Shown piece by piece: positions 33,718-56,320 of a DNA stretch of 64,000 nt (the first letter of the stretch is position 1; every line of letters starts with the position of its first letter). Below the pieces are notes generated by a model, which worked only from the letters and a program-made list of their open reading frames with translations, had not been told where the DNA came from and did no database searches. A program made the translations under genes and the position numbers. Location of the stretch: contig CM000435.1 in the NCBI GenBank assembly GCA_000165345.1, positions 64,001-128,000 on the forward strand, read 5' to 3'.

Positions 33718-34520
33718 TATTTCTCAAGTTTGGTAATACTGTTATCTTTTTTTTTTTTTTTGTTTTAAATTTTCAATGATTTATTAATTTCTTCTTGAAT
33801 TAGGGATTAATCGGGAATTATTTACTTCTTTATCAAATGAAATACTTATGTAAAAACTAAATTCTGAATTAATGGAAATATTAAACTAGATTTATTATAT
33901 TCAACTTTATTTTCAATATATTTATTTTAATAATATCATCCATTTTCTCTATTAAAATTTTAAATTTATCTTATTCATTGTAAATTATATTATCCAAAAG
34001 AAAAGAAAATAACGACAAAGCATTAATAACTTCATCACCTAGCTAACTGAGATATTTGCATAATCACTCTTCTCACTAATCAAGTTTTTTTTTTTGTATT
34101 ATAAAACAATAACCCAATGCAATAATTACAATATTACTATCACTTTAATTGTTATATCTTAGGCATAAATATATAAAGATATTATTTTATAATAAATTGA
34201 CTGGACCAATGATTCAATTCAACTTTAATTAAATTATAGGTGAATTCAAATATCTAATAATCATTAACCCAGTTTCTTACTTCTGATTTTTTTTTTCATC
34301 AAATTAAATTTGGTTTAATATATCTTAAATATTATATTCTATAGTTATATTCACTAATGATAATGTTATTGAATTAATTTCAATTCTTTTGAATAAATAA
34401 ATAAATAAATATATATATATATTATATTTATTTATTCATTCATATATATGTTAAGTGTGTCAAATGATATATCAATATTTTCATTATATTATCAACATCA
34501 CTTTTGTTCTATTATTATTA

Positions 34521-34606
<86 letters not shown>

Positions 34607-35422
34607 ATATATATATAATATTATTTATATAATTTTTCCTTATTGCAGTTTTTTTTGTATATTAAATTTTCTTTTTTCTTATTAATGTACTATTATAAAT
34701 ATTTAATTATATTGGTGAATATTATTACCAACCAGTTATTATTAATATTATTATTTTATTTTCAATCTAATTTGTCCAAAAGCAATTATATAATTATTAA
34801 AATCTTAATTATTCCTTTCCAAATAACGATAATTTTACCCCTATAAATATCAAAACAAAAAAATTTTCTTTATTTCTTTAAATCTAAAATAAAATAATAA
34901 TTTTCAGAAAAATTAATTTTTTTTTCTATTTAATATTTTTGTTAGACATATTATATTATGCCTAAGTTACACACACGCATAGTAAATATTAAGTACAGGA
35001 AACCACTAGTTATTATTTTGGAAATTTCCATTTTTGTTTGTAATTTTTTGGTGGAACATTTTTTTAAAAAAATTATTTCATCAATTATAATAATATAGGA
35101 TTTTTTTTTACTACTTTATAATAGAGAAAGATAGGAAGTAAAGAAAAAAAAAAAAAAAGAATTACATGATTTATTTATTAAAAATAAAAGACCGCCCTCC
35201 ACAATAGTAATTAATATATAAATTAAAATTTGAAAATATATATTTGCATGAATTGCGCGCCTCTATTAGAAAAAGCGTTCTAGCGCCAAATTATTGGAAA
35301 AGTAAATAATTACTGTTAATTGTACACGTAATAGTAGTAATTATTATTATTACTGTCACTATTATCATTATCACTATCATTATCATTCTTTTACTTTTTA
35401 AAAACTATATTAGCTAAATCAA

Positions 35423-38400
35423 CTAGTTTGGTTGTTTTTCTTCGATTGTGTGTTCTCTTTGTTTGAAATTAGTGTCAGATACATGTTGAATAATTTTTAA
35501 GTTTAAAGAATATTGGTTATTAGAATTAAATGAAGGATTATGCGGATTTTGATTATTATAAAAATTGAATAAATATTGGAAAATAAGTTCATCAATAGAA
35601 TTATGTATAATAAAGTTCCAAATATGTGGGGTTTTAGTTTGACCCATACGAATAATTCTACCAATAGCTTGTAATTCATCAGATTTATTTAAAAGAGGAC
35701 TAACAAAAATGATATGATTTGCTGCAGTAATATTAACTCCTTTTCCAACATTTAAATGATTACATAAAAGTACTCTGTAATTTATATCTATTGAATTTTC
35801 TGAAGATGAGAATTCTCTGATAATATGATATTCAGATTTACCACCACAATATTTTTTAAAAAGTATTTCATTTAAATGCATAGCAGATGAAAGAATATCA
35901 ATAACAGGTTGAAAATCAGAAAAGATGATAATTTTATCATTATTATTATTTAATATCCATTTAATATGTTTAATAATAGCTTCTATTTTAGTTCCAAAAT
36001 TTCCAAGTATTTCTATTGATTGTATTGTATTAAAATAATCAATACCAAAATCTACTTGATTTGGTTTATTTAATGATTCATTAATTAAAGATGTTGAAGA
36101 ATTAATATTATTTTCTAGATTATTTTCTTTTATTATATTATGATTATCATTATCAGGTACTATTAAAACAACATTTGTATCTTGAAAATTCAATCTACAT
36201 TTAGGGCATTGATTCTTAAGTTTATGATTAGATGATGATTTTTTACTAATTAATTTATAACAATCAATACAAATGATATGAGCACAAGGTAAAAGAACTT
36301 GTGAATAATCATCTTTTAATTTATTTAAACATATTGGACAAATATCATGATCTTGATTTTCTTCTTTCTCTTTTTCATGATCTTTTTCTTGTAAAATTTC
36401 ATTTTTCCAATCTTTTTTAGATCTTTGTTGTAATTTAAGATGACAAAGAAATTTTTGTTGTGATTTTAGATTTCTTCTTACACCAAGAGCAGATATACGT
36501 TCAGATTCATATTTTTCTATTAAAAATGGAATTTCACTTATATGTATAATATTATTATGATTTGAAGATGAATTTGATTGATTATTTTGAATTATTTGAA
36601 TTCTTTGTTTACAATCAATAAGTTCTAAATAAGAATTAATTAATTGTCTAGTAGCTGATACAAATGCTTTAATATTATAAAGTTCAATCTTTAAAGATTC
36701 AATATACTTGATATGTTTTGTTGAAATCTTTGAAATAGAAGAAAAATCATCCATTTCATTCAATTCTTGTTCTTGTTCTTGTTCTTGTTCTTGTTCTTGT
36801 TCAAATTCTAATTCTTTTTCTTCATCTTTTGAGTTAGATCCTGATTTAAAGAATTTTTTTCTTAATTCTTTGTTTAAAAACTTTAAGATTGCAATAGTTT
36901 CTGAATCTCTTAAATATGTAGAATCATGATGAATTATTTTGTTTTGTTGATTATTATCAATTTCTATACTATGGTTATTATTACTACTTTCACTAAGCCT
37001 TGTAAAAGTTTTCTTTTTTATAGTATATAGTGAATATTCTAATTCTTCAATATGGGTTTGTATAATACAAAATATACAAGATTCTTGTTTTTGAATAAGT
37101 TTATTATTCTTTTTTCCTATATTTTTCTGTTGATTATCTTCTATTTGACTATTTTGTCCTTGTTGACAGAAAAAGCAAGATGTGACTTTTGCAATGATTT
37201 CATCAAGAATTAGTTGGGATTTTATATTTTGGTTTTGGTTTTGGTTTTGGTTCTGGTTCTGGCTCAAATCCAAGTTTTGGTTCTGGTTCACATCCAAGTT
37301 CTGGTTCACATCCAAGTTTTGACTTTGGTTCACATCCAAGTTCTGGTTTTGGTTTTGGTTCTGGTTCACATCCAAGTTCCGGTTTTGGTTCACATCCAAA
37401 TTCTGGTTCACATCCAAATTCTGGTTCACATCCAAATTCTGGCTCACATCCAAATTCTGGCTCACATCCAAATTCTGGCTCACATCCAAATTCTGGCTCA
37501 CATCCAAATTCTGGCTCATACTTTGGCTTGAACACGTATTTTGATCTTGGATATTATTAAACCTCAATAGTTCTAGTTGTTTTAGCTGGTGTAAAAGTTT
37601 TGTTCGAGATTCTTGCATTTGCTTAACTTTGAGATCTAAAGTAATAATGAGACCATGAATACTATTAAAACTTGGTAAATTATGTTCAATGTTACCATCT
37701 TTTGCACTCTTAAATTCATATTGAAAATTCTCAATCCTATCTAATAAAAGATCCTCTTCACTGATTCCTCCTTTAGTAGACATATTAAACTTTTTTTTAA
37801 ATATATACCACCAATGATCATCAGAATATAATGAATTTGCTTTATCTTTAGATTTAATAAACAAATCATGTTTTTCTATATATTCTTTAAAATATTTACT
37901 TCTATATTTATTTTCAAGATCATTACATTCTTTCATTAGTTCTTTTTTCTCCAATTCATCATTGCATATTTCTCCAAGATTCCATAATGTATGTATTTGT
38001 TGCAAAACATCGACTCTATCTTCCTTACGAATATCAAGTACTTGCTTATAATAGAAAACTGACTTGTTCATTTGCATATTATTATTATTATTATTATTAT
38101 TATTATCATCATCATCATCATATTTGGACTTTTTTGTAAAATGAATACCTGCTAAACCTAAAGTATTCATGACATATTTTCTTACACTTTCTTCAATATC
38201 AATTCTACATTTATTTAATAATTTATCTAAAATCTGATCCATAGTCATAATCTTTAATCCTGTATTTAAAGAAACAATACCCGTATCATTATGATTATCT
38301 AAATTATAATATTTACTATCATCATCTTTATTTTTATTATGGATACCCATAATACCTAATTGTGGATGTATACAAGCAAGTCTTAACATTGTAATCAATG

Positions 38401-41400
38401 AATCCATTTCTTTCTTATTTCTTAAAAAACTTTCTTGACTTTTATAATTAATTATACTATTATAACCTGATTCACATTGTTTTATATAAAAGAATCTTTC
38501 TACTGAAGATAAACTTAAATAAGTATTTCCATAAAATGCTGGTGGTATACATATTTCCTCTTTTACTTGTTTCATTTCTCTCCTGTAAAATAATGAACCT
38601 ACAACATACTCTAAATGTTGTATTAAATTCATCATTGAAATATACTCATTAGTTATATAATCCAAACCACTTTCACATACAAACCATCTTTCTTCCTTTA
38701 GTAACTTTTCCTCAGTTAAGAGCTCTTTTTCATTCTCATTCATATGATTGGGGTCCTTGGGTTGATTTTGGGGTCGACTTTGGGAGTAATCTTGATCCTC
38801 AGCTCGATCTTGGGATTGGTCCTCAGCTTGTTCTTGGGATTGATCCTCGACTTGATCCTCGACTTGATCCTCAGCTCGAACCTCGGCTTGATCCTCAGAT
38901 CCACCTTGAAATTCTGTATTACCTTTGTTAGACTTAATATACAATATACTAGACAAGTATCCAATATACTTTTTATATAAAGTGTCATTAATTAAATCAA
39001 ATCCAACATTTGAAAGATTTAATAATAAACCAATCAAATCATTTGAACAAGATCTAACAATTGGAGTACCAGAAACACACCATTTATTATAACATATTAA
39101 TTTACTTGTCATTTTTGAAACAAGAGAATAACCTTCAGTCATTTGAGCTTCATCTAAAACTATTCTCCACCAATCAATATTAGTAATTAAAGATGCTAAA
39201 ATAGGATAACTTTTTTTAAATCTCATTGATCTTTTGTTTGTAATAGTATTTTGATCTAATACATGATATATTTCTTCTTTTAAAATTTCATATGATGTTA
39301 AAACTACATCATAATTTAAAATATCTCTTCTAGTTAATATTATTCCATTATTATTAGTCATTGAATCTAAATTAATATCTTTATTATTTAATTTATTTAA
39401 TGCTCTATTTTTCAAATAATTTTGTATATATCTTACTCCTTGATATTTAACAACTTTAAGTCTTCCTTTTTCTAAATGTTTATTAAATTCATCATACCAT
39501 TGATCTACAATACTTCCAGGAGCTATAATTAAAGTAGCTTTTACTATTAATCTCTCATTTAATTCAATACTTTGACATAATGAACAAAGTAAATTAATAT
39601 TATCTAAATGATTAAAATTCATTATATTATCACTTATACAACATTCAAAGTGAAATTTAACTTGACATTTTTTACATTCTACTATATTATAATCTTTAAA
39701 AGGCTTAAAAACTCCACATGGACATTCAATTTCTATATTGTTATTATTATTGTTATCTTTGTACTTAAAAATAGGAAGAGAAGAATTTTTTTTAAAACAT
39801 TCTTCTTTATTATTCAAATTCAAATAATAATAATATTCTTTTCTTGGATTCATTAAAATTAAAGTAATAATCTCCAAACTTTTACCTAATCCCATTTCAT
39901 CACATAGAAATCCTCCTCTTATAGTAAAATGACCACCTCCTGATGGTAAAATATTGAAAGAAAGTTCACCTGTTATCATATTAAAATAAAGTAAATCTTG
40001 TTCATTTTCTTCTTTTTTTGGTATTTTTAAACAATACCAATATGGTGGATATTCAATATTTAATTTTACTGTTTCTTTTTCAACATTTAAAGCAAACAAA
40101 ACTGCATCTTTTTGGTAATTTCTTAACTCAGAAACTAAACCTAAATGATTATTCCAATCGTGATTTTGTTTTATTGTAGAAGAAGAAGATCCCATTCTTT
40201 TCATGGATATATTATATTCTTGAAATATTGAATATAACTCATTTGGCTTAATTTGTATTGTTTGAAAGGAATTTTTTTTATTTTTGATTTGATTATAAGT
40301 ATAATTTTCAATAGATGGAAGCTTAAGTTCTTCATTAAGCCATGAGAATAAGATTTTGAAGCTATTTTTACCATCTTTTTTTCTAGATAACAATTTTCCA
40401 TCTAAAGAAGTTCTATTTAAATACATTTTAATATTCATATTTAATACGATTCCTTTAGATCTCGAGCAATTACTAGAGGTTGTGGTGATGGAATTTGCAG
40501 TATTGGAGTTTGAAGTGTTGGAGTTCGCAGTATTGGAATTTGCAGTGTTGGAGTTTGAAGTGTTGGAGTTCGCAGTATTGGAGTTTGAAGTGTTGGAGTT
40601 CGCAGTATTGGAATTTGCAGTGTTGGAGTTCGCAGTATTGAAATTTGCAGTGTTGGAGTTCGCAGTATTGGAGTTTGCAGTGTTGGAATTTGTAGTATTG
40701 AAATTTGCAGTGTTGGAGTTCGCAGTATTGAAATTTGCAGTATTGGAGTTCGCAGTATTGAAATTTGCAGTATTGGAGTTTGCAGTCCCAAAGTTTGCAG
40801 TGATGGAATTTGAAGTGTTGGAGTTCGCAGTATTGGAATTTGAAATATTGGAGTTTGAAGTGCTGGAGTTCGCAGTATTGGAATTTGTAGTCCCAGAGTT
40901 TGAAGTATCAGAGTTTACAATGCTAAAGTTTCTTATATTATAACTATAACTTTTCTTTACACCCAATATTTCACAAGTAAAAGTTATAAATCCTGCATCT
41001 TGTAATAATATTAGTGCCTTTCTAACATTAAAATATGGTATTTTTGGTTTTAAATTTAACCAACTTATTGTTCCTCGTCCTAAAATACCTTCTTTTATAT
41101 TTAATTCATCATATTCTATATTTTCTTTCTCAAATTTATCATTCAATATCACAAATTCACATTTAGATTTATTTTCTTCTAATAATCCAATATGTACAAT
41201 AAACTCTTTATTTTGATCATTTAAAGAATTCATAATTTCTATAAAATCAATATTTTCATTTTCTTGAATAATTGTTATTTTAATATTTTCCCATATATTT
41301 AAACAACAAATTAAATCATTTAATTTGGTTATTATCTGTCTTTTATTATATTTTATTCCTAATTCTTCTTTTTTATTCAATTTTTTTGGCTTTTTTAAAT

Positions 41401-41551
41401 CTAAATCCAAATCTAAATCATTATCTAAATCCAATTTTAAATCCAAATTATTCTCTTCTTTCTTTAAATTATCTTCTTCTAAAATAAAATATTCTTTATC
41501 TTGATATAAAACTCCTCCATATCTCAATGGTTTTGCTTTAAATCTAACCAT
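35423..41551 (-). CDS. SNF2-family DNA-dependent ATPase with PHD and C3HC4 RING fingers (SHPRH/Rad5/Rad16-like), greatly expanded by low-complexity repeat insertions
   Basis: The tracked ORF begins at a TTG (41557). The ATG at 41549-41551 gives MVRFKAKPL. SNF2 N-lobe LCDEMGLGKSLE, APGSIVDQW, DEAQ box (WWRIVLDEAQMTE). PHD-like CPCGVF...CKKCQVKFHFECC...CSLCQ. RING CPICLNKL...LPCAHIICIDCYKL...CPKCR. Helicase-C block LLCNHLNVGKGVNITAANHIIFVSPLLNKSDELQAIGRIIRMGQTK. Repeat arrays (NSNTA)n, (NLDVSQ)n, (EDQ[AV])n and (EQ)n are all in frame. Confidence 0.85.
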   Translation of the reverse strand: MVRFKAKPLRYGGVLYQDKEYFILEEDNLKKEENNLDLKLDLDNDLDLDLDLKKPKKLNKKEELGIKYNKRQIITKLNDLICCLNIWENIKITIIQENENIDFIEIMNSLNDQNKEFIVHIGLLEENKSKCEFVILNDKFEKENIEYDELNIKEGILGRGTISWLNLKPKIPYFNVRKALILLQDAGFITFTCEILGVKKSYSYNIRNFSIVNSDTSNSGTTNSNTANSSTSNSNISNSNTANSNTSNSITANFGTANSNTANFNTANSNTANFNTANSNTANFNTTNSNTANSNTANSNTANFNTANSNTANSNTANSNTSNSNTANSNTSNSNTANSNTANSNTSNSNTANSITTTSSNCSRSKGIVLNMNIKMYLNRTSLDGKLLSRKKDGKNSFKILFSWLNEELKLPSIENYTYNQIKNKKNSFQTIQIKPNELYSIFQEYNISMKRMGSSSSTIKQNHDWNNHLGLVSELRNYQKDAVLFALNVEKETVKLNIEYPPYWYCLKIPKKEENEQDLLYFNMITGELSFNILPSGGGHFTIRGGFLCDEMGLGKSLEIITLILMNPRKEYYYYLNLNNKEECFKKNSSLPIFKYKDNNNNNNIEIECPCGVFKPFKDYNIVECKKCQVKFHFECCISDNIMNFNHLDNINLLCSLCQSIELNERLIVKATLIIAPGSIVDQWYDEFNKHLEKGRLKVVKYQGVRYIQNYLKNRALNKLNNKDINLDSMTNNNGIILTRRDILNYDVVLTSYEILKEEIYHVLDQNTITNKRSMRFKKSYPILASLITNIDWWRIVLDEAQMTEGYSLVSKMTSKLICYNKWCVSGTPIVRSCSNDLIGLLLNLSNVGFDLINDTLYKKYIGYLSSILYIKSNKGNTEFQGGSEDQAEVRAEDQVEDQVEDQSQEQAEDQSQDRAEDQDYSQSRPQNQPKDPNHMNENEKELLTEEKLLKEERWFVCESGLDYITNEYISMMNLIQHLEYVVGSLFYRREMKQVKEEICIPPAFYGNTYLSLSSVERFFYIKQCESGYNSIINYKSQESFLRNKKEMDSLITMLRLACIHPQLGIMGIHNKNKDDDSKYYNLDNHNDTGIVSLNTGLKIMTMDQILDKLLNKCRIDIEESVRKYVMNTLGLAGIHFTKKSKYDDDDDNNNNNNNNNMQMNKSVFYYKQVLDIRKEDRVDVLQQIHTLWNLGEICNDELEKKELMKECNDLENKYRSKYFKEYIEKHDLFIKSKDKANSLYSDDHWWYIFKKKFNMSTKGGISEEDLLLDRIENFQYEFKSAKDGNIEHNLPSFNSIHGLIITLDLKVKQMQESRTKLLHQLKQLELLRFNNIQDQNTCSSQSMSQNLDVSQNLDVSQNLDVSQNLDVSQNLDVNQNLDVNQNLDVNQNRNLDVNQNQNQNQNLDVNQSQNLDVNQNLDVNQNQNLDLSQNQNQNQNQNQNIKSQLILDEIIAKVTSCFFCQQGQNSQIEDNQQKNIGKKNNKLIQKQESCIFCIIQTHIEELEYSLYTIKKKTFTRLSESSNNNHSIEIDNNQQNKIIHHDSTYLRDSETIAILKFLNKELRKKFFKSGSNSKDEEKELEFEQEQEQEQEQEQELNEMDDFSSISKISTKHIKYIESLKIELYNIKAFVSATRQLINSYLELIDCKQRIQIIQNNQSNSSSNHNNIIHISEIPFLIEKYESERISALGVRRNLKSQQKFLCHLKLQQRSKKDWKNEILQEKDHEKEKEENQDHDICPICLNKLKDDYSQVLLPCAHIICIDCYKLISKKSSSNHKLKNQCPKCRLNFQDTNVVLIVPDNDNHNIIKENNLENNINSSTSLINESLNKPNQVDFGIDYFNTIQSIEILGNFGTKIEAIIKHIKWILNNNNDKIIIFSDFQPVIDILSSAMHLNEILFKKYCGGKSEYHIIREFSSSENSIDINYRVLLCNHLNVGKGVNITAANHIIFVSPLLNKSDELQAIGRIIRMGQTKTPHIWNFIIHNSIDELIFQYLFNFYNNQNPHNPSFNSNNQYSLNLKIIQHVSDTNFKQREHTIEEKQPN
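37210..37535. repeat. Imperfect 18-nt tandem repeat (GTTCACATCCAAGTTCTG-type) encoding the (NLDV[SN]Q)n/(NQ)n array inside the SNF2 gene
   Basis: Periodicity is visible directly (ttctggttcacatccaagtt... repeated more than 15 times). It stays in frame in the minus-strand CDS. Confidence 0.8.
38760..38900. repeat. 12-nt tandem repeat (GATCCTCGACTT-type) encoding (EDQ[AV]E)n inside the SNF2 gene
   Basis: cttgatcctcgacttgatcctcgacttgatcctcagctcg... Periodicity is visible and in frame. Confidence 0.75.
40455..40920. repeat. 15-nt tandem repeat (TGCAGTATTGGAGTT-type, about 30 copies) encoding the pentapeptide (NSNTA/NFNTA)n array inside the SNF2 gene
   Basis: agtattggagtttgaagtgttggagttcgcagtattggaatttgcagtgttggagtt... 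about 465 nt of 15-nt units with third-position variation. No stop codons in the CDS frame. Confidence 0.85.
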
Positions 41552-42360
41552 CTTCAAAAAAGTGATAAGAAGAAGAAAAAAAAAAAAAAGAAGAAATAAA
41601 AGAAAAAGAATAAGTGGAGGAAGAGGAATATGAATAAGAAGAAGATGAAGAAGATGAAGAAGAAGAAGAAATATAAATCTCTAACTCACATTAATTAAAA
41701 ATATAAAATGATAATTTTCCATTCAAATCCCTAAAAACTCTTTTTCACTTTTAATATGTATCCAAAAATATTAGATTTATATCTATTTTAAATACTAGTA
41801 ATCTGGATATCAAATATTATATATATTTTCACCATTAAATAAAATATATTTAAATATTCATTAATATATCATTAATATACCAAACTTTTATTTAATATCT
41901 AAAAAATAATTTTTTACTTTTTTTTTTTTTTTTATAATATAATTTTTTTTTTATATAATACATTACCGGTATACAAGAAATAAATTTATGATTAATTGTG
42001 CAGCAGATTACCGCCAAACACGTGTTATATTGATTATCTCATTTTAAAAACAAATAATATAAATAATGAAAAAAACGAATAAAAGGATTAAATGAGTAAA
42101 GTGAATACAATATTTATAGAAAACAATAATATTTTAAATAATTGTATTTGAATGAAAAATTGTTAAACTCTTGTTTGGATTTCAGTTACTTTAAATTATT
42201 AAGGTGGAAAAAAAACAAAGAAAAAAAGTTAAGTTAAAAAAAAAAAAAAATAATCTATTAAAACAATTTTAAAGATCCAAGATAAAATAAAATTATTAAT
42301 TAATAATACAATATTTAATTTATTTGATTTCTAATTTCTTATTTCAATAAAAAAAAAATT

Positions 42361-43323
42361 ATGTTTTCTATTTCAGAAAGATATGAACAAATTAATGCAC
42401 ATATTGGACAAGGTACTTATGGTAAAGTAGAAAAAGCAATAGACAAAAATAGTGATACTATAGTAGCTATAAAAAAAGTGAAAATATGTGAATTACCTTC
42501 AGATTTAACAGAATCTAGACAAAAAGTTGGACAATGTGGTATTCATTTCACAGTTTTAAGAGAAATTAAAATAATGAATGAAATTAATCATCCAAATATT
42601 ATGGGTTTAAGAGATGTTTTTGTTCAAGGAGATTTTATTAATTTAGTTATGGATTATATGGAAAGTGATTTAAGAAAAGTTTTTGAAAATAGAATTCGAT
42701 TTTCTGAATCACATATTAAATGTCTTTTAAAACAAATAATTCTTGGAATTAATGAATTACATAATTGGTTTATTATACACAGAGATTTAGCTCCTGCTAA
42801 TATCTTTATTAATTCAAAAGGTATAGCAAAAGTTGGTGATTTTGGATTAGCTAGAAGTTATGGACAACCACGTAGAGAATATACTCCTGAAGTTGTTACA
42901 TTATGGTATAGATGCCCAGAATTACTTTTTGGATCCACAAAATATACTCATGCTGTTGATATGTGGAGTATAGGTTGTATTTTTGCAGAACTCTTAACAG
43001 GTGGAAAAGCTTTATTACCTGGTGATGATGAAGTTAGACAACTTGGACGTATTTTTGAACTTTTAGGTACCCCAAATGAAGATAATTGGCCACAAGCTAA
43101 AGAATTACCTTTATATTGTGAATTTAGTCCAAGATCTCCATTAAATTTTAAAGATATCTTTCCCAATGCATCAGAAATGGCAATTGATCTTATTCAATCA
43201 TTTTTGAGACTTAATCCATTAGAAAGAATTTCAGCAAGTCAAGCTTTAGAACATGAATATTTTAAAAGTTATCCACTTCCATGTGATCCTTCCGAATTAC
43301 CACTTAATTACTTTAAAAACTAA
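42361..43323 (+). CDS. CDK7/MRK-like cyclin-dependent protein kinase
   Basis: 320 aa with ATG at 42361. YEQINAHIGQGTYGKVEKAIDKNSDTIVAIKKVKI; PSTAIRE-region variant FTVLREIKIMNEI; HRDLAPANIF; DFGLARSYG; T-loop REYTPEVVTLWYRCPE, the CDK activation-loop Thr context. Confidence 0.8.
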   Translation: MFSISERYEQINAHIGQGTYGKVEKAIDKNSDTIVAIKKVKICELPSDLTESRQKVGQCGIHFTVLREIKIMNEINHPNIMGLRDVFVQGDFINLVMDYMESDLRKVFENRIRFSESHIKCLLKQIILGINELHNWFIIHRDLAPANIFINSKGIAKVGDFGLARSYGQPRREYTPEVVTLWYRCPELLFGSTKYTHAVDMWSIGCIFAELLTGGKALLPGDDEVRQLGRIFELLGTPNEDNWPQAKELPLYCEFSPRSPLNFKDIFPNASEMAIDLIQSFLRLNPLERISASQALEHEYFKSYPLPCDPSELPLNYFKN

Positions 43324-45332: not shown

Positions 45333-45365
<33 letters not shown>

Positions 45366-45701
45366 TATAAATATTATTTATATATATTTATATATATATA
45401 TATATTTATAACATTTATGTTTACATATACATAAATATCTCATTTACATCTGATTAAATTGGAATACAGAGCTAAAAAAACGCAAAAAAGATAAACTTGA
45501 ATTACAACTTATGGTCTTATAGAATTGGAAAATTACTATAATCACTTTAAGAATATAAGAGTACTTTTCTATAAGTACTAAAGCTTTTCAAATTTTTATT
45601 ATTTTTGGTATTTGATTATCAGTAAATTAAGATAAACTATTGATATTTAACCCAACCCCCTTATCCTTTTTTTTTAAATTATTAAAAATAAAGTTTTTGG
45701 A

Positions 45702-47960: not shown

Positions 47961-50900
47961 ATGAAACTTGGTATTTTTGGAGATATATATTCCACTTTTT
48001 TCCCAATTGATTTATGTATAAAACTGTTAATATTCACTATTTCAATACTTTTATTTTTTTATATAGCCAATTTAATAATATGGAGAAGATATGATAAACA
48101 TACATATAAACACCAATCTTTTGAAATGATACTTATTCCATGTAGGAAAAATATTTACTCCAATATATTCAGATGTACTTTGAATTTTTTGACAGCAGTT
48201 CACTTAATATTAATCCCATTAGTTACTTATGACTCAGTAAGTGCTCCTGAAAGTTCTTCCATATTATATTGGAGAAAGAAAGCTGAAGTTTTCTTAGTGG
48301 AATATGTTGTTGCTTTAATAATTTGCATAGGAAGAAAATTATTTACACAAAGAATTAGGCTCACTTTGATAATGCCATCAAATCTTTTTGATTGTAATTT
48401 TGTATGTTTGTGGGTACGTGATAATAATAATATTAATAATAATCATAATCATGATCATAATACAAATGATAATATTATTCAATCCATAAATAAAGATCCA
48501 AGTTATTCAACTTTAAATAAAAAATTTCTCAATTTTTACAAGAAAAGTCTTGCATTTTTAGATGGTGAAATGACAGGATTTAAATATTATGGTTGTCATA
48601 TACAAACAGATGAATCCTCTGGAATTAGGTATTTTATTGCTGGATCAACAAGATTTGTATTTTCTATAGAAACTGGGACTTTTTTGCCTCAAATACAATC
48701 AAGTAGAGTTAGTGTAAATCAAATTGAAAATGCTTTGAATTGTGGAGGACATTCAGAAGCTTCTGTTATTTCTTATTTATCTGTTTTTGGAAAAAATGAA
48801 TTACCATATGAAACTGAGCCTGCATTACTTGTAATGAAACGTATTTTCTTTTGTCCAACTTTCATTTTACAATATTTAATGCTCTCAACAACTTTCTTTT
48901 TGAGGTTTTTCACTTGGTCATTTTGTTGGTCGGCTTTAATTTTATATACAAACCTATTTAGTTTCTTTAAAGATATTTTTAGAAATAGAAAACTCTTAAA
49001 AGAAACCCATGAAATTAATAATCGACCAGTTAAAGTAATACGTGGGAATATTAAAAAATCGATTAAAGCGTCTGATATTGTCCTTTTTGATATTGTATTA
49101 TCTGAAACAGGAGATATTGCACCTTGCGATATGATACTTATGGAAAAATTAGTACTTGTTGACGAATCAAGTTTGACAGGTGAAGCAACACCTGTTTTTA
49201 AAAAGCCTCTTGATTTATCAGCGCTTTCAAATTCTCAAATACTTTCAGCTAGTGATAATATTCTTAAAGACTCTTTGATTCATGCTGGATGTAAAATTAT
49301 TAAAGTATTTGGCGGAGATGAATCAAATGATTCATTAATTTCCGTAGTCTTAAATACTGGTGTTTTTACATTTAAATCAAAAATTCTGCGTACAGTTTCT
49401 CAAAATATGATTTCTGATGATTTTCATAATGATATTCCGTTATTGTGGTTATTAACTTTATCAGTTGCATCAGTTGTTATAACAGTACAATGCTTAATTT
49501 CACAATTTAATATTGGGTCCATATTCTTCATTTTAGGTACTTTACTACAACTTCTTCCAATTTGGGCACCAGCTTTTGTACAATCATGCATTAATAGTTC
49601 AGTTTCAACATTAAAAAATGATAAAAATGTTGAAAGTTCTTACCCAAGAAGAATCTTGTTTGCTAGTAAATTGGATACATTATTCTTTGATAAGACTGGT
49701 ACTTTAACAATGAATGATTACGTACTTGATAATGTTGAAAGATTAAATTCTGATTTACTTGAAGATCAGGGATTCTTTACTGGAAATGAACGCTATTCTG
49801 AAAGAATAGTTAGGGGAATAAATGGAGAAAAAATTGATATATTAAAAATGGCAATTTCAACTTGCCATTCATTATCTTTTGTTCCTGATCAAGGCGATGG
49901 AGGGTATTATGGAGATTCAATTGAAAAGGAAATGCTTAAGTTTACAAGATCTTGTATTTATGAGAAGTCCTCATTAAACGATAGATCTTTAAGAAGGTTT
50001 GTTTTTGAAAAAGGAGCTGAATTTGATCTTGAAAATATCTATAGAAGCCACAATACTGCAAATCTTGAGAAAAAGCTCAGTAAAGGATGCGAAATACTGA
50101 AGATATTCGATTTTAATGGCGTTAGTAGGTCAATGAGTGTTATTGTTCGTTGTAACGTCACAGATAGAGTCTTTTTATTTACTAAAGGCGCATCTGAATC
50201 CATTTTAAAGTTTTCAATTAAGAACCAATCGACTGAGGAAATTGAATTTAGAACATCTAAACTATCTTCTTCAGGATTTTATGTAATAATAATAGCTTAT
50301 CGGGAATTGAAATCCGATAAAGAGTCAATTGAATTGTATAGATTATTAAACGAAAGTGAAAGAATTAATTTTGAAGTTGACTTAATTCCAGTTGGAATTC
50401 TTTGTTTTTCAAATTGTATTAGAAAGGAAGCACCATTTATCATTAAGGAAATTAAAGATCTTGGAATTAAGCCCATAATTCTAACAGGCGATAATTCAGA
50501 TTGTGCATTGTGCGTTGCTAAACAAGTTGGAATTATTAATAGCCAATTCAAAGTCTCTAATATTGAGGCAAAACTTAACCTTTGCGAAATTGACTTGAAT
50601 AGCCACCAAATTGCTGTATTGTGTTGTATTATTTCCGGAAAATTAGTTTTTTTGAATGAATTTAGACATGAAATTGATCTGGAGGAAGTTATTAAAAATT
50701 TGAATAAGATAAGATTAGTTGTAACATTTGAATCTTACGAAATGATGAGCAAGACTATTCTGCATAATTATGAAGGTATTGTTAATCCATTAAAAAATGA
50801 TTCCAAACAAGCATTTTTGAGTAATGAGACTCTTTTGGACTTGTTTAAAAATAATATTTCAGTAATTTCAAGAGCTAACCATATTAATAAACAGAGTGTT

Positions 50901-51836
50901 ATTCGACAATTTATGAATGAAGGAAAAATTGTTGGAATGGTTGGCGATGGAACAAATGATGTTGCTGCTGTTAAAGATTCCAATCTGGGAATATTTGTTA
51001 ATAAAAATGGAAGTTTAAGTAGCCATTTTTCTTTGGATAAAGGGGATTTAAATGGAATATTAAGTATTATTCGAGAGGGATGCGGGTGTGCTGCTAATTC
51101 ACGTTCATTGTACTTGTTCATGATTATGTATGGATTCACAATTGTAATTTGTAAGAATATTTTATTATATTCTGGACAAGCAACTCTTCCAACTATGGGG
51201 TACTTTTATTATAGTATTTTTGTAAATTTTCCAAGTGTATGGGGAATAAAAAGAAGCAGGCCTGCAAATAAGATTAAAAAGTATCCTGTAGATGCAGGAT
51301 TGGTATCAAGGAGCTCCATATTGACTGTTATTTGTTTTGTTTCTGTTATTGGAATCAACCTGGGTGTCGTATTGTTTTTGTTATCAAATAAGTCATGGTT
51401 TGTTTCTAGTTATACAAGAAATTTGGGAATTCCAATTTTCATTTCTGCACGCCAAGATGGATTTGAATCATCCACGACTTTAATTTGGATGTGCTCTTTG
51501 CATTCGCATATGGCTCTGATTTTTGGAATGGGAGGATATCACAGAGAACCTTTTTATAAAAATAAAGTTCTCGTTTCTACGTGGTTTTTAGCACAGCTTG
51601 GGCTTTTATTTCTAATTTTTTCGGAGCCAAGTCTCATTACATGCTTCTTTAAAATTAACTGTCAAGAAGGCATAACTCCTGGAACTTTATTTGGTATGAA
51701 TATCCCAAAATTCTCGAGTAGCAATGTTTTCCCATTTTCTTGGAAGTTTGAGCTCGTTGGATGGATAGCTGCTTCCTTCCTAATTTGCATATTTATTTAT
51801 CGCAAATTAAACTTCAATTCAGCTTCCAAAATTTGA
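47961..51836 (+). CDS. Divergent P-type (E1-E2) ATPase, subfamily not assignable from motifs
   Basis: 1291 aa. Phosphorylation site FFDKTGTLTMND. Actuator-like SSLTGEATP. Hinge GMVGDGTNDVAAVKDSNLGI. At least 10 predicted TM segments. Long N-terminal extension. The TM4 motif LLPIWAP does not match the canonical P2 (PEGLP), P4 (PISL) or P5 (PPxxP) signatures. Confidence 0.75.
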   Translation: MKLGIFGDIYSTFFPIDLCIKLLIFTISILLFFYIANLIIWRRYDKHTYKHQSFEMILIPCRKNIYSNIFRCTLNFLTAVHLILIPLVTYDSVSAPESSSILYWRKKAEVFLVEYVVALIICIGRKLFTQRIRLTLIMPSNLFDCNFVCLWVRDNNNINNNHNHDHNTNDNIIQSINKDPSYSTLNKKFLNFYKKSLAFLDGEMTGFKYYGCHIQTDESSGIRYFIAGSTRFVFSIETGTFLPQIQSSRVSVNQIENALNCGGHSEASVISYLSVFGKNELPYETEPALLVMKRIFFCPTFILQYLMLSTTFFLRFFTWSFCWSALILYTNLFSFFKDIFRNRKLLKETHEINNRPVKVIRGNIKKSIKASDIVLFDIVLSETGDIAPCDMILMEKLVLVDESSLTGEATPVFKKPLDLSALSNSQILSASDNILKDSLIHAGCKIIKVFGGDESNDSLISVVLNTGVFTFKSKILRTVSQNMISDDFHNDIPLLWLLTLSVASVVITVQCLISQFNIGSIFFILGTLLQLLPIWAPAFVQSCINSSVSTLKNDKNVESSYPRRILFASKLDTLFFDKTGTLTMNDYVLDNVERLNSDLLEDQGFFTGNERYSERIVRGINGEKIDILKMAISTCHSLSFVPDQGDGGYYGDSIEKEMLKFTRSCIYEKSSLNDRSLRRFVFEKGAEFDLENIYRSHNTANLEKKLSKGCEILKIFDFNGVSRSMSVIVRCNVTDRVFLFTKGASESILKFSIKNQSTEEIEFRTSKLSSSGFYVIIIAYRELKSDKESIELYRLLNESERINFEVDLIPVGILCFSNCIRKEAPFIIKEIKDLGIKPIILTGDNSDCALCVAKQVGIINSQFKVSNIEAKLNLCEIDLNSHQIAVLCCIISGKLVFLNEFRHEIDLEEVIKNLNKIRLVVTFESYEMMSKTILHNYEGIVNPLKNDSKQAFLSNETLLDLFKNNISVISRANHINKQSVIRQFMNEGKIVGMVGDGTNDVAAVKDSNLGIFVNKNGSLSSHFSLDKGDLNGILSIIREGCGCAANSRSLYLFMIMYGFTIVICKNILLYSGQATLPTMGYFYYSIFVNFPSVWGIKRSRPANKIKKYPVDAGLVSRSSILTVICFVSVIGINLGVVLFLLSNKSWFVSSYTRNLGIPIFISARQDGFESSTTLIWMCSLHSHMALIFGMGGYHREPFYKNKVLVSTWFLAQLGLLFLIFSEPSLITCFFKINCQEGITPGTLFGMNIPKFSSSNVFPFSWKFELVGWIAASFLICIFIYRKLNFNSASKI

Positions 51837-52450: not shown

Positions 52451-53401
52451 TTAAAGATTAAGGCTTTTTAAGTCTTGGACAAGGTTTTGAATAGATTCAA
52501 CTGATTTAGAAAATAATGATTTTTCGTCATCAGATAAATTTACAATAACAACGTCTTCAATACCATTTTTTCCAATAACAACAGGAACACCGACAAAAAG
52601 ATTGTTAACATTATACTGGCCAGTAAGATATGTTGAACAAACTAATACTGATTTAGAATCTTTCAAATAAGCTTGAGCCATAGCTACAGCTGAAGCGGCT
52701 GGAGCATAGAATGCTGAGCCAGTTTTTAAAAGTTCAACAATTTCACCGCCACCAAATGCTGTCTTCTTAATAATTTCATTGATTTGTGAATGAGTAATTT
52801 TTCCTTGCTCAACAAAATCACTAAGCAGAATTCCACCAATTGTAACTGAACTAGTTAATGGTATCATCTCATCTCCATGGCCACCTACAACAATGGCTGA
52901 TACATCAGATGGCTTTACACCTAATGCTCGACTTAAATTACATCTGAACCTAGCGGAATCAAGCACACCTGACATACCACAAACTTTATTAGCTGGTATT
53001 CCACTCTTTTCTTTAAAGTAGTAAACCATCGCATCTAGAGGATTAGTAATACATATTACAAATGCATTAGGGCAGTATTTACCGACATTTTCTGCAACTG
53101 AACCAACAATCTTTGCATTAACAGTAAGTAAATCTGAACGTGTCATATTTGGTTTTCTAGGAACTCCAGCTGTTATTATGACGACATCAGAGTTTTGTAA
53201 ATACTCATAGTTATTTTCACCAAATATTTTCGCTGGTGACCCAATCAATGCCATGCAGTGATTCAAATCTAAAGCTTTTCCTTGTGGAACTCCCTCAATA
53301 ATATCAAACATATAAACATCTCCTAAATCTTTTTGTCCTAAAAGAAGTGCTATAGTTGAGCCAATTTGTCCAGCTCCAATAATTGAAATTTTCTTTCTCA
53401 T
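52451..53401 (-). CDS. MDH: Malate dehydrogenase (LDH-like MDH, Arg at substrate-specificity position)
   Basis: 316 aa. IGAGQIGST Rossmann motif. AGVPRKPNMTRSDLL loop with Arg at the position equivalent to residue 102. Catalytic GGHGDEM. Paralogous to the adjacent gene over its full length. Confidence 0.85.
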   Translation of the reverse strand: MRKKISIIGAGQIGSTIALLLGQKDLGDVYMFDIIEGVPQGKALDLNHCMALIGSPAKIFGENNYEYLQNSDVVIITAGVPRKPNMTRSDLLTVNAKIVGSVAENVGKYCPNAFVICITNPLDAMVYYFKEKSGIPANKVCGMSGVLDSARFRCNLSRALGVKPSDVSAIVVGGHGDEMIPLTSSVTIGGILLSDFVEQGKITHSQINEIIKKTAFGGGEIVELLKTGSAFYAPAASAVAMAQAYLKDSKSVLVCSTYLTGQYNVNNLFVGVPVVIGKNGIEDVVIVNLSDDEKSLFSKSVESIQNLVQDLKSLNL

Positions 53402-53819
53402 AATTACAGTATTATATTTATAACTTATTTTTTTTAATTATATCAATAGAATTTCTCTATTTTATTGTGATCTATTTTCTTTTTCCCCTACTTAGCTTTT
53501 AAGATACTCATTTCCCACGCAATTATTACCTAAAACGAGGGGCGTAACAAATTCAAATAGCAGGCGGGAAATTTGAACAGCTAATGGCGCGGCAACAAGT
53601 GCAAATTCATGCAACATTTGAAAGAAAATGAGAATAGAATAATACGCATTAAGTTTTTTTTTCTATTTTTTACTAGTAATTAATCCCGAAAACCCACATG
53701 CAATAATCTCAATCAGCCATCTCATACAATAAATGAAAGTTGGATGAGAGAATTTTTTTACATTTTTTGAATTACAGGATATCGCAAACAATATCTTATT
53801 GAAATAAGAAAAAATATTC

Positions 53820-54785
53820 TTATGCTCCAGCAGCTGGTGCATTATCCAACACCTTGGAAATAGTGTTGACTTCATTAATTGATTCCCCAAGAAGCTTCTG
53901 TTCTAGTGGAGTTAAGTCCAATTCGAGAATGTCCTCAACACCATTCTTTCCAATAATTGTTGGAACACCCATGTATATACCCTTTACACCATAATGGTTG
54001 GAGCAGAATGCAGAACATGGAACAACTGCCTTCTTGTCCTTTAGGTAAGCTTCAGCCATCTTAACAGCAGCAGCGGCTGGTGCAAAGTAGGCAGTTCCTG
54101 TCTTTAAGTTATCAGCAACTTCCTTCCATGCTATTCTGGTATGGCACACAATCTCATCAATTTGTTCCTGGGTGATAAGACCTTGCTTAATGAAGGATGA
54201 AAGAGGAACACCACCAACCGAAACTGAACTAGTAACTGGTACCATACCATCGCCATGGCCACCAATAACGTTGGCACTAACATCAGAAGCATTAACGCCA
54301 AAATGTTGTGCAATGAATGTTCTAAATCTAGATGAATCTAATACACCTGCCATACCACAAACTTTGTTATGTGGAAGCCCAGAAACCTTTTGGAAGTGTG
54401 AAACCATAACATCTAATGGGTTTGTGATACAGATGACAAAGGCATTTGGACAGTATTTCTTAACACCTTCGGCAACTGAATCCAAAATACGAGCATTTCC
54501 GAATAAGAGTTCAGAACGATCATCTTTTGGACGACCTGGAATGGAGGCTGTGATAATAACTACATCAGAGCCTGATATATCAGCATAATCATTTGTGCCG
54601 ATAACCTTTGATGTGGAACCAAACATTACCATAGAGTGGGTAATATCTAGTGCTTTTCCTTGTGGAATGCCTTCTGCAATATCAAAAAGTACTACATCGG
54701 CTAAATTGTCTTTACCTACAATATATGCAATATTACCTCCAATTTGTCCTGACCCAATAACGGCAATCTTGCGTCTTTCAATCAT
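53820..54785 (-). CDS. LDH: L-lactate dehydrogenase (MDH-derived paralog with Gly at substrate-specificity position)
   Basis: The tracked ORF starts at a TTG (54824). The ATG at 54783-54785 gives MIERRKIAVIGSGQIGGNIA (321 aa). Loop ASIPGRPKDDRSELL has Gly where the MDH has Arg. GGHGDGM. Tandem to the MDH on the same strand. Confidence 0.85.
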   Translation of the reverse strand: MIERRKIAVIGSGQIGGNIAYIVGKDNLADVVLFDIAEGIPQGKALDITHSMVMFGSTSKVIGTNDYADISGSDVVIITASIPGRPKDDRSELLFGNARILDSVAEGVKKYCPNAFVICITNPLDVMVSHFQKVSGLPHNKVCGMAGVLDSSRFRTFIAQHFGVNASDVSANVIGGHGDGMVPVTSSVSVGGVPLSSFIKQGLITQEQIDEIVCHTRIAWKEVADNLKTGTAYFAPAAAAVKMAEAYLKDKKAVVPCSAFCSNHYGVKGIYMGVPTIIGKNGVEDILELDLTPLEQKLLGESINEVNTISKVLDNAPAAGA

Positions 54786-55675
54786 CTTTAATATAAAAAA
54801 AATAAATAAATGCTTTGAAAACAAAAATTCGCTTTAATTAAACTTAATTAAATAATAGTGATTCTTATCTCTTTTTTTGTCCTCTAATAATTATACATGT
54901 GTGGATTTCTGTACGCAAAAAAATATCTTTAATATCCATAATATTTTTATTATTTAAATTTATCTTTAATTAGGTATGCTTACGTTACTAGGCGGGCATC
55001 ATGTTTTGTTTATTTTAGATTTTTTTTTATTCAAAAATACCATATTTTTTTCTGGAATCTCATTCTTTAAATATAATTCCAAGAAATTATCAATGTTAAT
55101 TCAACTAACCCTACTGACTAGCTTGCTTGCTTGCAGTTTACATTATTTATATACCCTTCGATATCAAAATTTTGATTATCTTAAAGCTAATTGTGATAGC
55201 TTATCCACCCCTTTACCCCTCTAATTATAAGATTTTAATTCTTAATTATTGCATGTAAATACCGGTATGCAATTTTTGCAAAAATAGTCGTATTATTATT
55301 TTTTATATTTTGCATCAATTTTTTTTTCTTTTTAAATAAAAATTGTCCACATTAAATTTTTAAATTACGTGTGAATTTATCAAAAAAATATATATTTTAT
55401 TTCACGGATTCTTGAAATTATGAAATAAAAATTAGGAATAATTTATAAGAACGTAGAAATAATAATAATAATACTAATACACAAGCTATTTGAATGTTAA
55501 AGTATTTTTCAAAATTTAACTGAATTTAATAATTTTGAAAAATATTTTGCAAGTAAATATTTGAGCGCACAGATATAATTAAAAACAAAAAATTAAAAGT
55601 GAAAAATAATTAACTTTTTTTTTTTTTAATCGTTATCAAGGGAATTAAAAGTGGAATATAGATATTTTTATCAAA

Positions 55676-56320
55676 ATGTCAAGTTTAATCGAGATAATGA
55701 CTATAGTTGAAAGTAAAGGAGGGAAAGAGGATGTTGAAGTAGAATTAAGTAAAGATCTTCCAGAAGCAGACTTTAATAAGCTAAGGGAACAATTATTTAT
55801 GATGGGATTTGAGTTGCAGAATCAAAATATTGAAAAAGATCAAAAAAGTGGTAGCTCTGGCAATACTGGTGATAATTGTAGAAAATTTAAATTGAAAAAA
55901 GAATCATATAACGAATTAATTGTAAAGGAAATATCGAATATGTCACTTAAAAATCAACAAGAAGCATCAATTCCTCTAACTCCAAAATCAGCTTTGAAAA
56001 GTAAGAAGGATAATTTTGTGGATAAGAGCCAGAAGCTAGATGAGGAGCTGGCAGCAATTAGAGCAGAAAAGGCAAGACAATTTAAAGATTCATCAGGCCA
56101 TTCATATAGAAACACAAATAATACATGTAATAGCAATAATAGTAGAACTTCTACGGATTCTCAATCCTCTTTTAGAAGATTTATGAATTTTGATTGGTTC
56201 ACATCAATGTTTTCATCCAGAAGAAGAGGGACAAGTCAAAGAGATAGAATGCATTTGGATTCAAGTTATTATAGATCTAAGAATACAGGATGTTGTGGCT
56301 CAAGTTGTGGAGGATCTTAA
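55676..56320 (+). CDS. Hypothetical protein (Ser/Asn-rich, C-terminal CCGSSCGG motif)
   Basis: 214-aa ORF with ATG at 55676. No recognisable domain. Compositionally biased. Lies in a gene-sized gap between flanking genes. Confidence 0.4.
   Translation: MSSLIEIMTIVESKGGKEDVEVELSKDLPEADFNKLREQLFMMGFELQNQNIEKDQKSGSSGNTGDNCRKFKLKKESYNELIVKEISNMSLKNQQEASIPLTPKSALKSKKDNFVDKSQKLDEELAAIRAEKARQFKDSSGHSYRNTNNTCNSNNSRTSTDSQSSFRRFMNFDWFTSMFSSRRRGTSQRDRMHLDSSYYRSKNTGCCGSSCGGS

Follow-up and report, generated by a model that had tools for sequence, protein, structure and literature searches.

How might a malate dehydrogenase have been turned into a lactate dehydrogenase, and what do the two genes left by such an event still record of it? 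The question is raised by two neighboring genes in a 64,000-nucleotide stretch of contig CM000435.1 (positions 64,001 to 128,000; hereafter the window), one encoding an L-lactate dehydrogenase (LDH) and the other a malate dehydrogenase (MDH). We are highly confident that they are the LDH-MDH pair of chromosome 7 of Cryptosporidium parvum (cgd7_480 and cgd7_470) and that the pair derives from the tandem duplication of an alpha-proteobacterial-type MDH. The only LDH of an important diarrheal pathogen, a validated drug target, is encoded at this locus, which also ranks among the independent MDH-to-LDH conversions by which neofunctionalization is studied; all of this has been established since 2004, and both proteins have been crystallized.

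The two genes and the residues that set them apart

Two intronless open reading frames (ORFs), both on the minus strand and arranged head to tail, were found by reading the sequence of the window together with its ORF listing. The upstream copy (53820..54785, minus strand) is the derived paralog and encoded CpLDH, with 321 amino acids followed by a stop codon and with Gly as canonical residue 102. The downstream copy (52451..53401, minus strand), with Arg at the same position, encoded CpMDH, with 316 amino acids and a stop codon. The LDH frame was open from a TTG at 54824 (53820..54824, 334 amino acids), but the conserved ATG at 54785 was assigned as the start because every orthologue begins with MIERRK. 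The span of 52451-54785 given in a preliminary description of this DNA ran exactly from the MDH stop codon to the LDH start codon.

Comparison with the Protein Data Bank showed that the upstream protein was identical at 320 of 321 residues to the C. parvum LDH of entries 2fn7 and 4nd1-4nd5, and that the downstream protein was identical at all 316 residues to the C. parvum MDH of entry 2hjr. The molecule name of 2fn7 and 4nd1 is itself [quoted passage not shown]. Database look-up returned exact matches for both sequences in C. parvum (LDH, QOY40361.1 / F0X3G4_CRYPV; MDH, QOY40360.1 / Q6VPE9_CRYPV), encoded on a contig of 1.36 Mb. Since the C. hominis orthologues differed at one residue in LDH and at four residues in MDH, the window was assigned to C. 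parvum rather than to C. hominis, and the taxonomic value that the preliminary description had claimed for the locus was borne out. Both genes have been placed on chromosome VII and given an alpha-proteobacterial origin (PMC545779). The single LDH mismatch was Val184 (54234-54236), which is Ala in 2fn7 and 4nd1-4nd5; Val184 was also present in the Iowa II reference XP_628238 and in all orthologues, and from this comparison Ala184 is probably a cloning variant of the crystallized constructs and not of the window.

The Pfam domains Ldh_1_N (PF00056) and Ldh_1_C (PF02866) were found in this order in both proteins, at 120.9 and 105.1 bits in LDH and 146 and 113.9 bits in MDH (gathering cutoffs of 27 and 22.6 bits). 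With the equivalog model of bacterial MDH, TIGR01763, whose cutoff is 351.85 bits, the MDH passed at 360 bits, and the LDH fell just short at 330.8 bits. Both passed the MDH subfamily model NF004863 (420.6 bits for MDH and 387.3 bits for LDH; cutoff 283), and both failed the canonical L-LDH model TIGR01771, where LDH scored 246.9 bits against a cutoff of 303.55. Because the LDH passes an MDH model and fails the L-LDH model, some database entries, such as that of C. felis, name the LDH orthologue “malate dehydrogenase”. The catalytic residues Arg109, Asp168, Arg171, and His195 (R90, D150, R153, and H177 in LDH, with their equivalents in MDH) were invariant in 144-145 of 145 aligned sequences, and the NAD-binding motif GxGxxG (G11-x-G13-x-x-G16) was invariant among the aligned orthologues.

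The two proteins were clearly paralogous, as the preliminary description had stated: BLASTP aligned them with 165 identities over 306 residues (54%), 75% positives, and no gaps (E = 2e-119), and the genes are adjacent on one strand with a spacer of 418 bp. All of the motifs quoted in that description were present (CITNPLD; GGHGDGM and GGHGDEM), although its first pair had been listed in downstream/upstream order, IGAGQIGST belonging to MDH and IGSGQIGGN to LDH. The aligned codons were 62% identical, with a nonsynonymous divergence (dN) of about 0.40 and a synonymous divergence (dS) of about 1.4, which is essentially saturated. The best surviving trace of the duplication at the DNA level, found by a repeat search, was a stretch of 177 nucleotides (52943..53119, minus strand) that was 71% identical to 54321-54497 with a period of 1378 nucleotides and coded for the CPNAFVICITNPLD...VCGM...LDS.RFR core. 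Outside the coding regions, a duplication-boundary search of the flanking DNA of the two genes revealed no similarity beyond short A/T-rich chance matches. Such an erasure of the boundaries is expected at this dS.

In MDHs, the C4 carboxylate of oxaloacetate is bound by Arg102, the residue at the substrate-specificity position. The LDH specificity loop (54521-54545, minus strand) had exactly the length of the MDH loop, with no insertion, and carried ASIPGRPKDDR in place of the AGVPRKPNMTR of MDH. Gly84 of LDH (codon GGT, 54534..54536, minus strand) aligned with Arg82 of MDH (codon AGA, 53156..53158, minus strand), and this alignment was unambiguous because it was free of gaps and the loops were of equal length between invariant Pro residues; the contrast of Gly upstream with Arg downstream in the preliminary description was therefore correct. 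In 4plh, a reconstructed ancestral MDH, the residue aligned with both is the Arg within IPRKPGMSR, numbered Arg102 by Boucher 2014 (PMC4109310), and in apicomplexan LDHs this column holds the Lys given as Lys102 in the same study. Gly102 was kept in 11 Cryptosporidium LDHs and Arg102 in 10 Cryptosporidium MDHs, C. andersoni included. Among 145 aligned homologues, Gly in this column was confined to the Cryptosporidium LDHs, and Arg was found in all Cryptosporidium MDHs, in 57 of the 57 bacterial MDHs sampled, and in 128 sequences overall. The Gly102 of Cryptosporidium LDH and its independent duplication have been published (PMC4109310), and a 2024 review reached the same result for position 102 by three-dimensional superposition of 4ND1 (PMC11461325). 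According to a 2022 paper (PMC8766848), the active-site loop of CpLDH has the same five-residue insertion as that of the Plasmodium and Toxoplasma enzymes, whereas the loop read here has the MDH length and no such insertion.

The MDH motif GGGEIV was replaced in LDH by AWKEV, with a Trp at residue 220 (codon TGG, 54126..54128, minus strand). We take this residue to lie at about position 236 in canonical LDH numbering, and it is called Trp236 below. It was fixed in all Cryptosporidium LDHs, including that of C. andersoni, and exclusive to them among the aligned sequences; the other 129 sequences with a residue in this column, all MDHs and two synthetic ancestral sequences, had Gly, as did T. 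gondii LDH2. Gly102 and Trp236 occurred together only in the Cryptosporidium LDH lineage, and neither was present in 114 close bacterial matches.

Four database proteins labelled “Escherichia coli 1-110-08_S*” (EYD92875.1, EYE08248.1, EYE09452.1, and EYE17608.1; P0004, P0008, P0011, and P0015 in our set) were Cryptosporidium LDHs. The full-length member, P0004, had both Gly102 and Trp236 and was only 92-93% identical to each of the named intestinal species compared. On this sequence evidence, the E. coli assemblies seem to have been contaminated with eukaryotic DNA from a Cryptosporidium species outside the named cluster members.

Age, polarity, and origin of the pair

The same tandem was found on contig LRBS01000093 of C. 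andersoni, where the LDH was followed by 306 bp and then by the MDH. The C. andersoni LDH (321 amino acids, 75% identical to CpLDH) carried SVSGRPKDDR with Gly102, and the MDH (319 amino acids) carried AGVPRKPNMTR with Arg102. The upstream neighbors also matched, namely a small opposite-strand ORF, an RPAP2_Rtr1 gene, and a WD40-cyclophilin gene. C. parvum is an intestinal and C. andersoni a gastric species (PMC9713705). Since the tandem, the residues at position 102, and the neighbors were common to both species, and dS between the paralogs was saturated, the duplication was older than the C. parvum/C. andersoni split. Madern 2004 is said to have called the duplication “very recent”. Because of its saturated dS and its age relative to this split, the duplication counts as recent only on the scale of the apicomplexan radiation. 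By the same evidence, the “direct genomic snapshot” of the preliminary description was right about the tandem duplication but overstated its freshness, the synonymous sites being saturated and the duplication boundaries erased.

Analysis of the substitutions revealed which copy had changed. In six species for each paralog, 30 columns were fixed within each copy and differed between the copies. The bacterial consensus state was kept by MDH at 20 of these columns and by LDH at 5, which marks LDH as the derived copy. The 12-residue specificity loop accounted for six of the 30 columns (S81, G84, R85, K87, D88, and E92 of LDH). The distance between C. parvum and C. andersoni was 0.30 for LDH and 0.42 for MDH; the greater conservation of LDH fits strong constraint after a new function had been fixed.

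The origin of the pair was analyzed with a neighbor-joining tree (Kimura distances, 70 sequences, 317 columns, 500 bootstraps) of six Cryptosporidium LDHs, six Cryptosporidium MDHs, T. gondii LDH2 taken from a PDB alignment, and 57 bacterial or metagenomic MDHs. The Cryptosporidium LDHs and MDHs formed one clan in 446 of 500 bootstraps (89%), and this clan was joined by T. gondii LDH2 in 497 (99%). If all apicomplexan LDHs had a single origin, in the ancient duplication that also gave rise to Plasmodium and Toxoplasma LDH, the Cryptosporidium LDH would have lost a five-residue insertion and changed Lys102 to Gly, and its adjacency to MDH would be ancestral or coincidental. The inclusive clan agrees with this account in that all of these enzymes would come from one acquisition, and raw distances failed to separate the alternatives. 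However, the Cryptosporidium LDHs grouped with T. gondii LDH2 in only 27 of 500 bootstraps (5%), against 446 for the grouping with Cryptosporidium MDH. The insertion would have had to vanish without a trace from a loop of exactly MDH length: relative to MDH or AncMDH2, the Plasmodium/Toxoplasma-type insertion was absent from the LDH, where TgLDH2/AncLDH have LTKVPGKSDKEWSR and the LDH has SIPGRPKDDR. The tandem was also common to C. parvum and C. andersoni, and published maximum-likelihood (ML) analyses side with an independent origin of Cryptosporidium LDH (PMC4109310). We consider a single origin very improbable, and the sequence comparisons support an origin of Cryptosporidium LDH independent of the insertion-bearing apicomplexan LDHs, through the lineage-specific duplication of MDH that the preliminary description had proposed.

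If two alpha-proteobacterial MDH-like genes had arrived by separate horizontal transfers and come to lie together by chance, this would account for an LDH that was 54-56% identical to many alpha-proteobacterial MDHs and by raw distance no closer to its neighbor, and for a duplication unit unmarked by similarity in the flanking DNA. We regard such a coincidence as scarcely credible, given two genes adjacent on one strand across 418 bp and the support for the Cryptosporidium and the apicomplexan clans; neither Gly102 nor Trp236 was found in any of the 114 bacterial matches from which a donor might be sought, and flank similarity would not be expected to last at the observed dS.

Nothing contradicted a Cryptosporidium-specific tandem duplication followed by a change at position 102, but some limits apply to this reading. 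The raw distance between LDH and the neighboring MDH was 0.73, equal to the mean distance between LDH and bacterial MDHs (0.73), and by itself does not show a sister relation; because raw distances were uninformative, the lineage-specific duplication rests on tree topology and adjacency. The tree was built by neighbor joining with no ML model, and included one non-Cryptosporidium apicomplexan sequence and no Plasmodium MDH. In addition, four substitutions at position 102 of an ancestral MDH, the Cryptosporidium Gly included, raised the activity on pyruvate each time and never gave a specific LDH (PMC4109310). The change of Arg102 to Gly alone was thus not enough in that background, and Gly102 is necessary without being the whole mechanism.

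Function and the change of specificity

Under the tandem-duplication reading, an apicomplexan ancestor gained an “LDH-like” alpha-proteobacterial-type MDH, and a tandem duplication of this gene followed in the line leading to Cryptosporidium, ahead of the separation of C. parvum from C. andersoni. The downstream copy kept Arg102 and the ancestral sequence and remained an NAD-dependent MDH converting oxaloacetate to malate. In the upstream copy, Arg102 was replaced by Gly, the mobile specificity loop was remodelled at the six positions named above, and the Trp at about position 236 was gained, while the four catalytic residues were retained. The guanidinium pairing with the C4 carboxylate of oxaloacetate was lost, and because this loss would remove MDH activity and permit the reduction of pyruvate, the upstream copy is the only LDH of the parasite. 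It regenerates NAD+ for glycolysis in an organism without a tricarboxylic acid cycle, and the two copies have also diverged in expression, with LDH reported as the top oocyst transcript and showing the stronger codon bias.

Recombinant CpLDH has been reported to reduce pyruvate and to prefer NADH (PMC4642935). The notion that the Gly102 copy serves as another MDH isozyme, or as a 2-hydroxyacid dehydrogenase of promiscuous specificity, and not as a dedicated LDH could draw on its passing NF004863 (387 bits) and failing TIGR01771, on the name of the C. felis entry, and on the non-specific enzyme given by R102G alone in the ancestral MDH (PMC4109310), but it can hardly be maintained against a recombinant protein that reduces pyruvate with kinetics similar to those published for the LDHs of Plasmodium and Toxoplasma (PMC4642935), the knock-down and inhibitor studies in which CpLDH is treated as an essential LDH and a drug target, and the lack of the oxaloacetate-binding Arg102 in every LDH orthologue.

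Since R102G alone yields no specific LDH in the ancestral MDH, further changes beyond Gly102 must contribute, and the obvious candidates are the clustered loop substitutions and Trp236. We tentatively suggest, as a possibility less likely to be right than wrong, that the switch was a coupled exchange of volume, in which the Arg side chain was lost from the loop (G84) and W220 was gained on the helix that faces it. The indole of Trp236 would then pack against the methyl group of pyruvate and the closed loop, and would represent a second, independent “tryptophan solution”, a functional analogue of the Plasmodium-type Trp107f contributed by another structural element. Such an exchange, if true, would account for the failure of R102G alone in the ancestral MDH (PMC4109310). 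It may already have been described in the earlier CpLDH literature; a literature search on Trp236 or W236 in CpLDH returned only unrelated potassium-channel papers, and PMC6687188 contained no mention of Trp.

Of all oocyst transcripts, that of LDH is reported to reach the highest level (PMC3542205). The codon bias of LDH (GC at third codon positions, GC3, 0.287; C at third positions, C3, 0.171) was stronger than that of MDH (GC3 0.184; C3 0.095), and the C3 of LDH was second only to that of HSP70 within the window, which fits the reported expression. The AT-rich spacer that separates the LDH stop codon from the MDH start codon (53402..53819, minus strand) presumably contains the LDH 3' end and the MDH promoter. 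It held an E2F-like TTTCCCGCC 170 nucleotides 5' of the MDH ATG, a GCGCGCC nearby, and two TGCATG motifs. None of these motifs was found in the C. andersoni spacer or the upstream region, and we make no claim of a regulatory role for them.

Surroundings of the pair and comparison with known systems

The region 5' of LDH (54786..55675, minus strand; 890 bp, 21% GC) is presumed to contain the LDH promoter and is shared with a divergent plus-strand ORF (55676-56320) encoding a Ser/Asn/Arg-rich protein of 214 amino acids with no Pfam match. The small C. andersoni ORF in this place encoded 185 amino acids, also with no Pfam match, and corresponded to it in position. On the other side, a plus-strand gene for a P-type ATPase of 1291 amino acids (47961-51836) converged on the MDH 3' end; its Pfam scores were weak (E1-E2_ATPase, 56 bits), and a long extension at its N terminus included an Asn/His-rich tract. 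The composition of the window shifted along its length, with a GC3 of 0.24-0.38 for genes in the left half (1-30000) and 0.08-0.29 in the right half (30000-64000). The GC3 of a kinase gene at 42361-43323 was 0.08, and the bulk GC fell to 0.19 at 34-36 kb. A minus-strand ORF of 2044 amino acids (35423-41557) with SNF2, RING, and Helicase_C domains, similar to SHPRH, contained in-frame tandem repeats: a 30/45-nucleotide unit in about 13 copies (40489-40891), an 18-nucleotide unit in about 12.6 copies (37281-37518), and a 24-nucleotide unit in 4.5 copies (38792-38898). Long intergenic microsatellites, which could act as typing markers, were found at 34510-34625 ((TAT)37), 41567-41670 ((AAG)35), and 45333-45410 ((AT)39). 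No tRNA genes were found in the 64-kb window.

The pair is the same locus as the known CpLDH1 (cgd7_480; 2fn7 and 4nd1-4nd5) and CpMDH (cgd7_470; 2hjr) of C. parvum, with matching gene order, Gly102/Arg102, and chromosome VII, and the sole difference is Val184 in place of the Ala of the PDB constructs. [quoted passage not shown] The tandem and its interpretation are already known from Madern 2004 and Boucher 2014, and the present work is a rediscovery; the correct call of the genes, the key residue, the evolutionary history, and the organism from raw sequence alone serves as a positive control. The additions are small and refine the published picture without changing it: the tandem predates the split between intestinal and gastric species, LDH is the derived copy, the combination of Gly102 and Trp236 is restricted to its lineage, and the two genes differ in codon bias.

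The LDHs of the Plasmodium/Toxoplasma type come from the same alpha-proteobacterial-type MDH stock and have the same fold and the same Arg109, Asp168, Arg171, and His195, but they arose by a separate duplication and carry Lys102 and a five-residue loop insertion with Trp107f (Boucher 2014). CpLDH, in contrast, has no insertion, has Gly102, and carries its Trp on the 236 helix instead of in the loop. In canonical LDHs, which have Gln102, position 102 likewise governs the discrimination between pyruvate and oxaloacetate, whereas CpLDH belongs to the LDH-like MDH clade, has Gly instead of Gln, and fails TIGR01771. The classic Q102R switch from LDH to MDH was reportedly made by Wilks et al. in 1988. 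The LDH of Trichomonas vaginalis, a recent duplicate of cytosolic MDH, is another independent conversion of an MDH after duplication through the replacement of Arg102, but it belongs to the cytosolic dimeric MDH subfamily and has Leu102.

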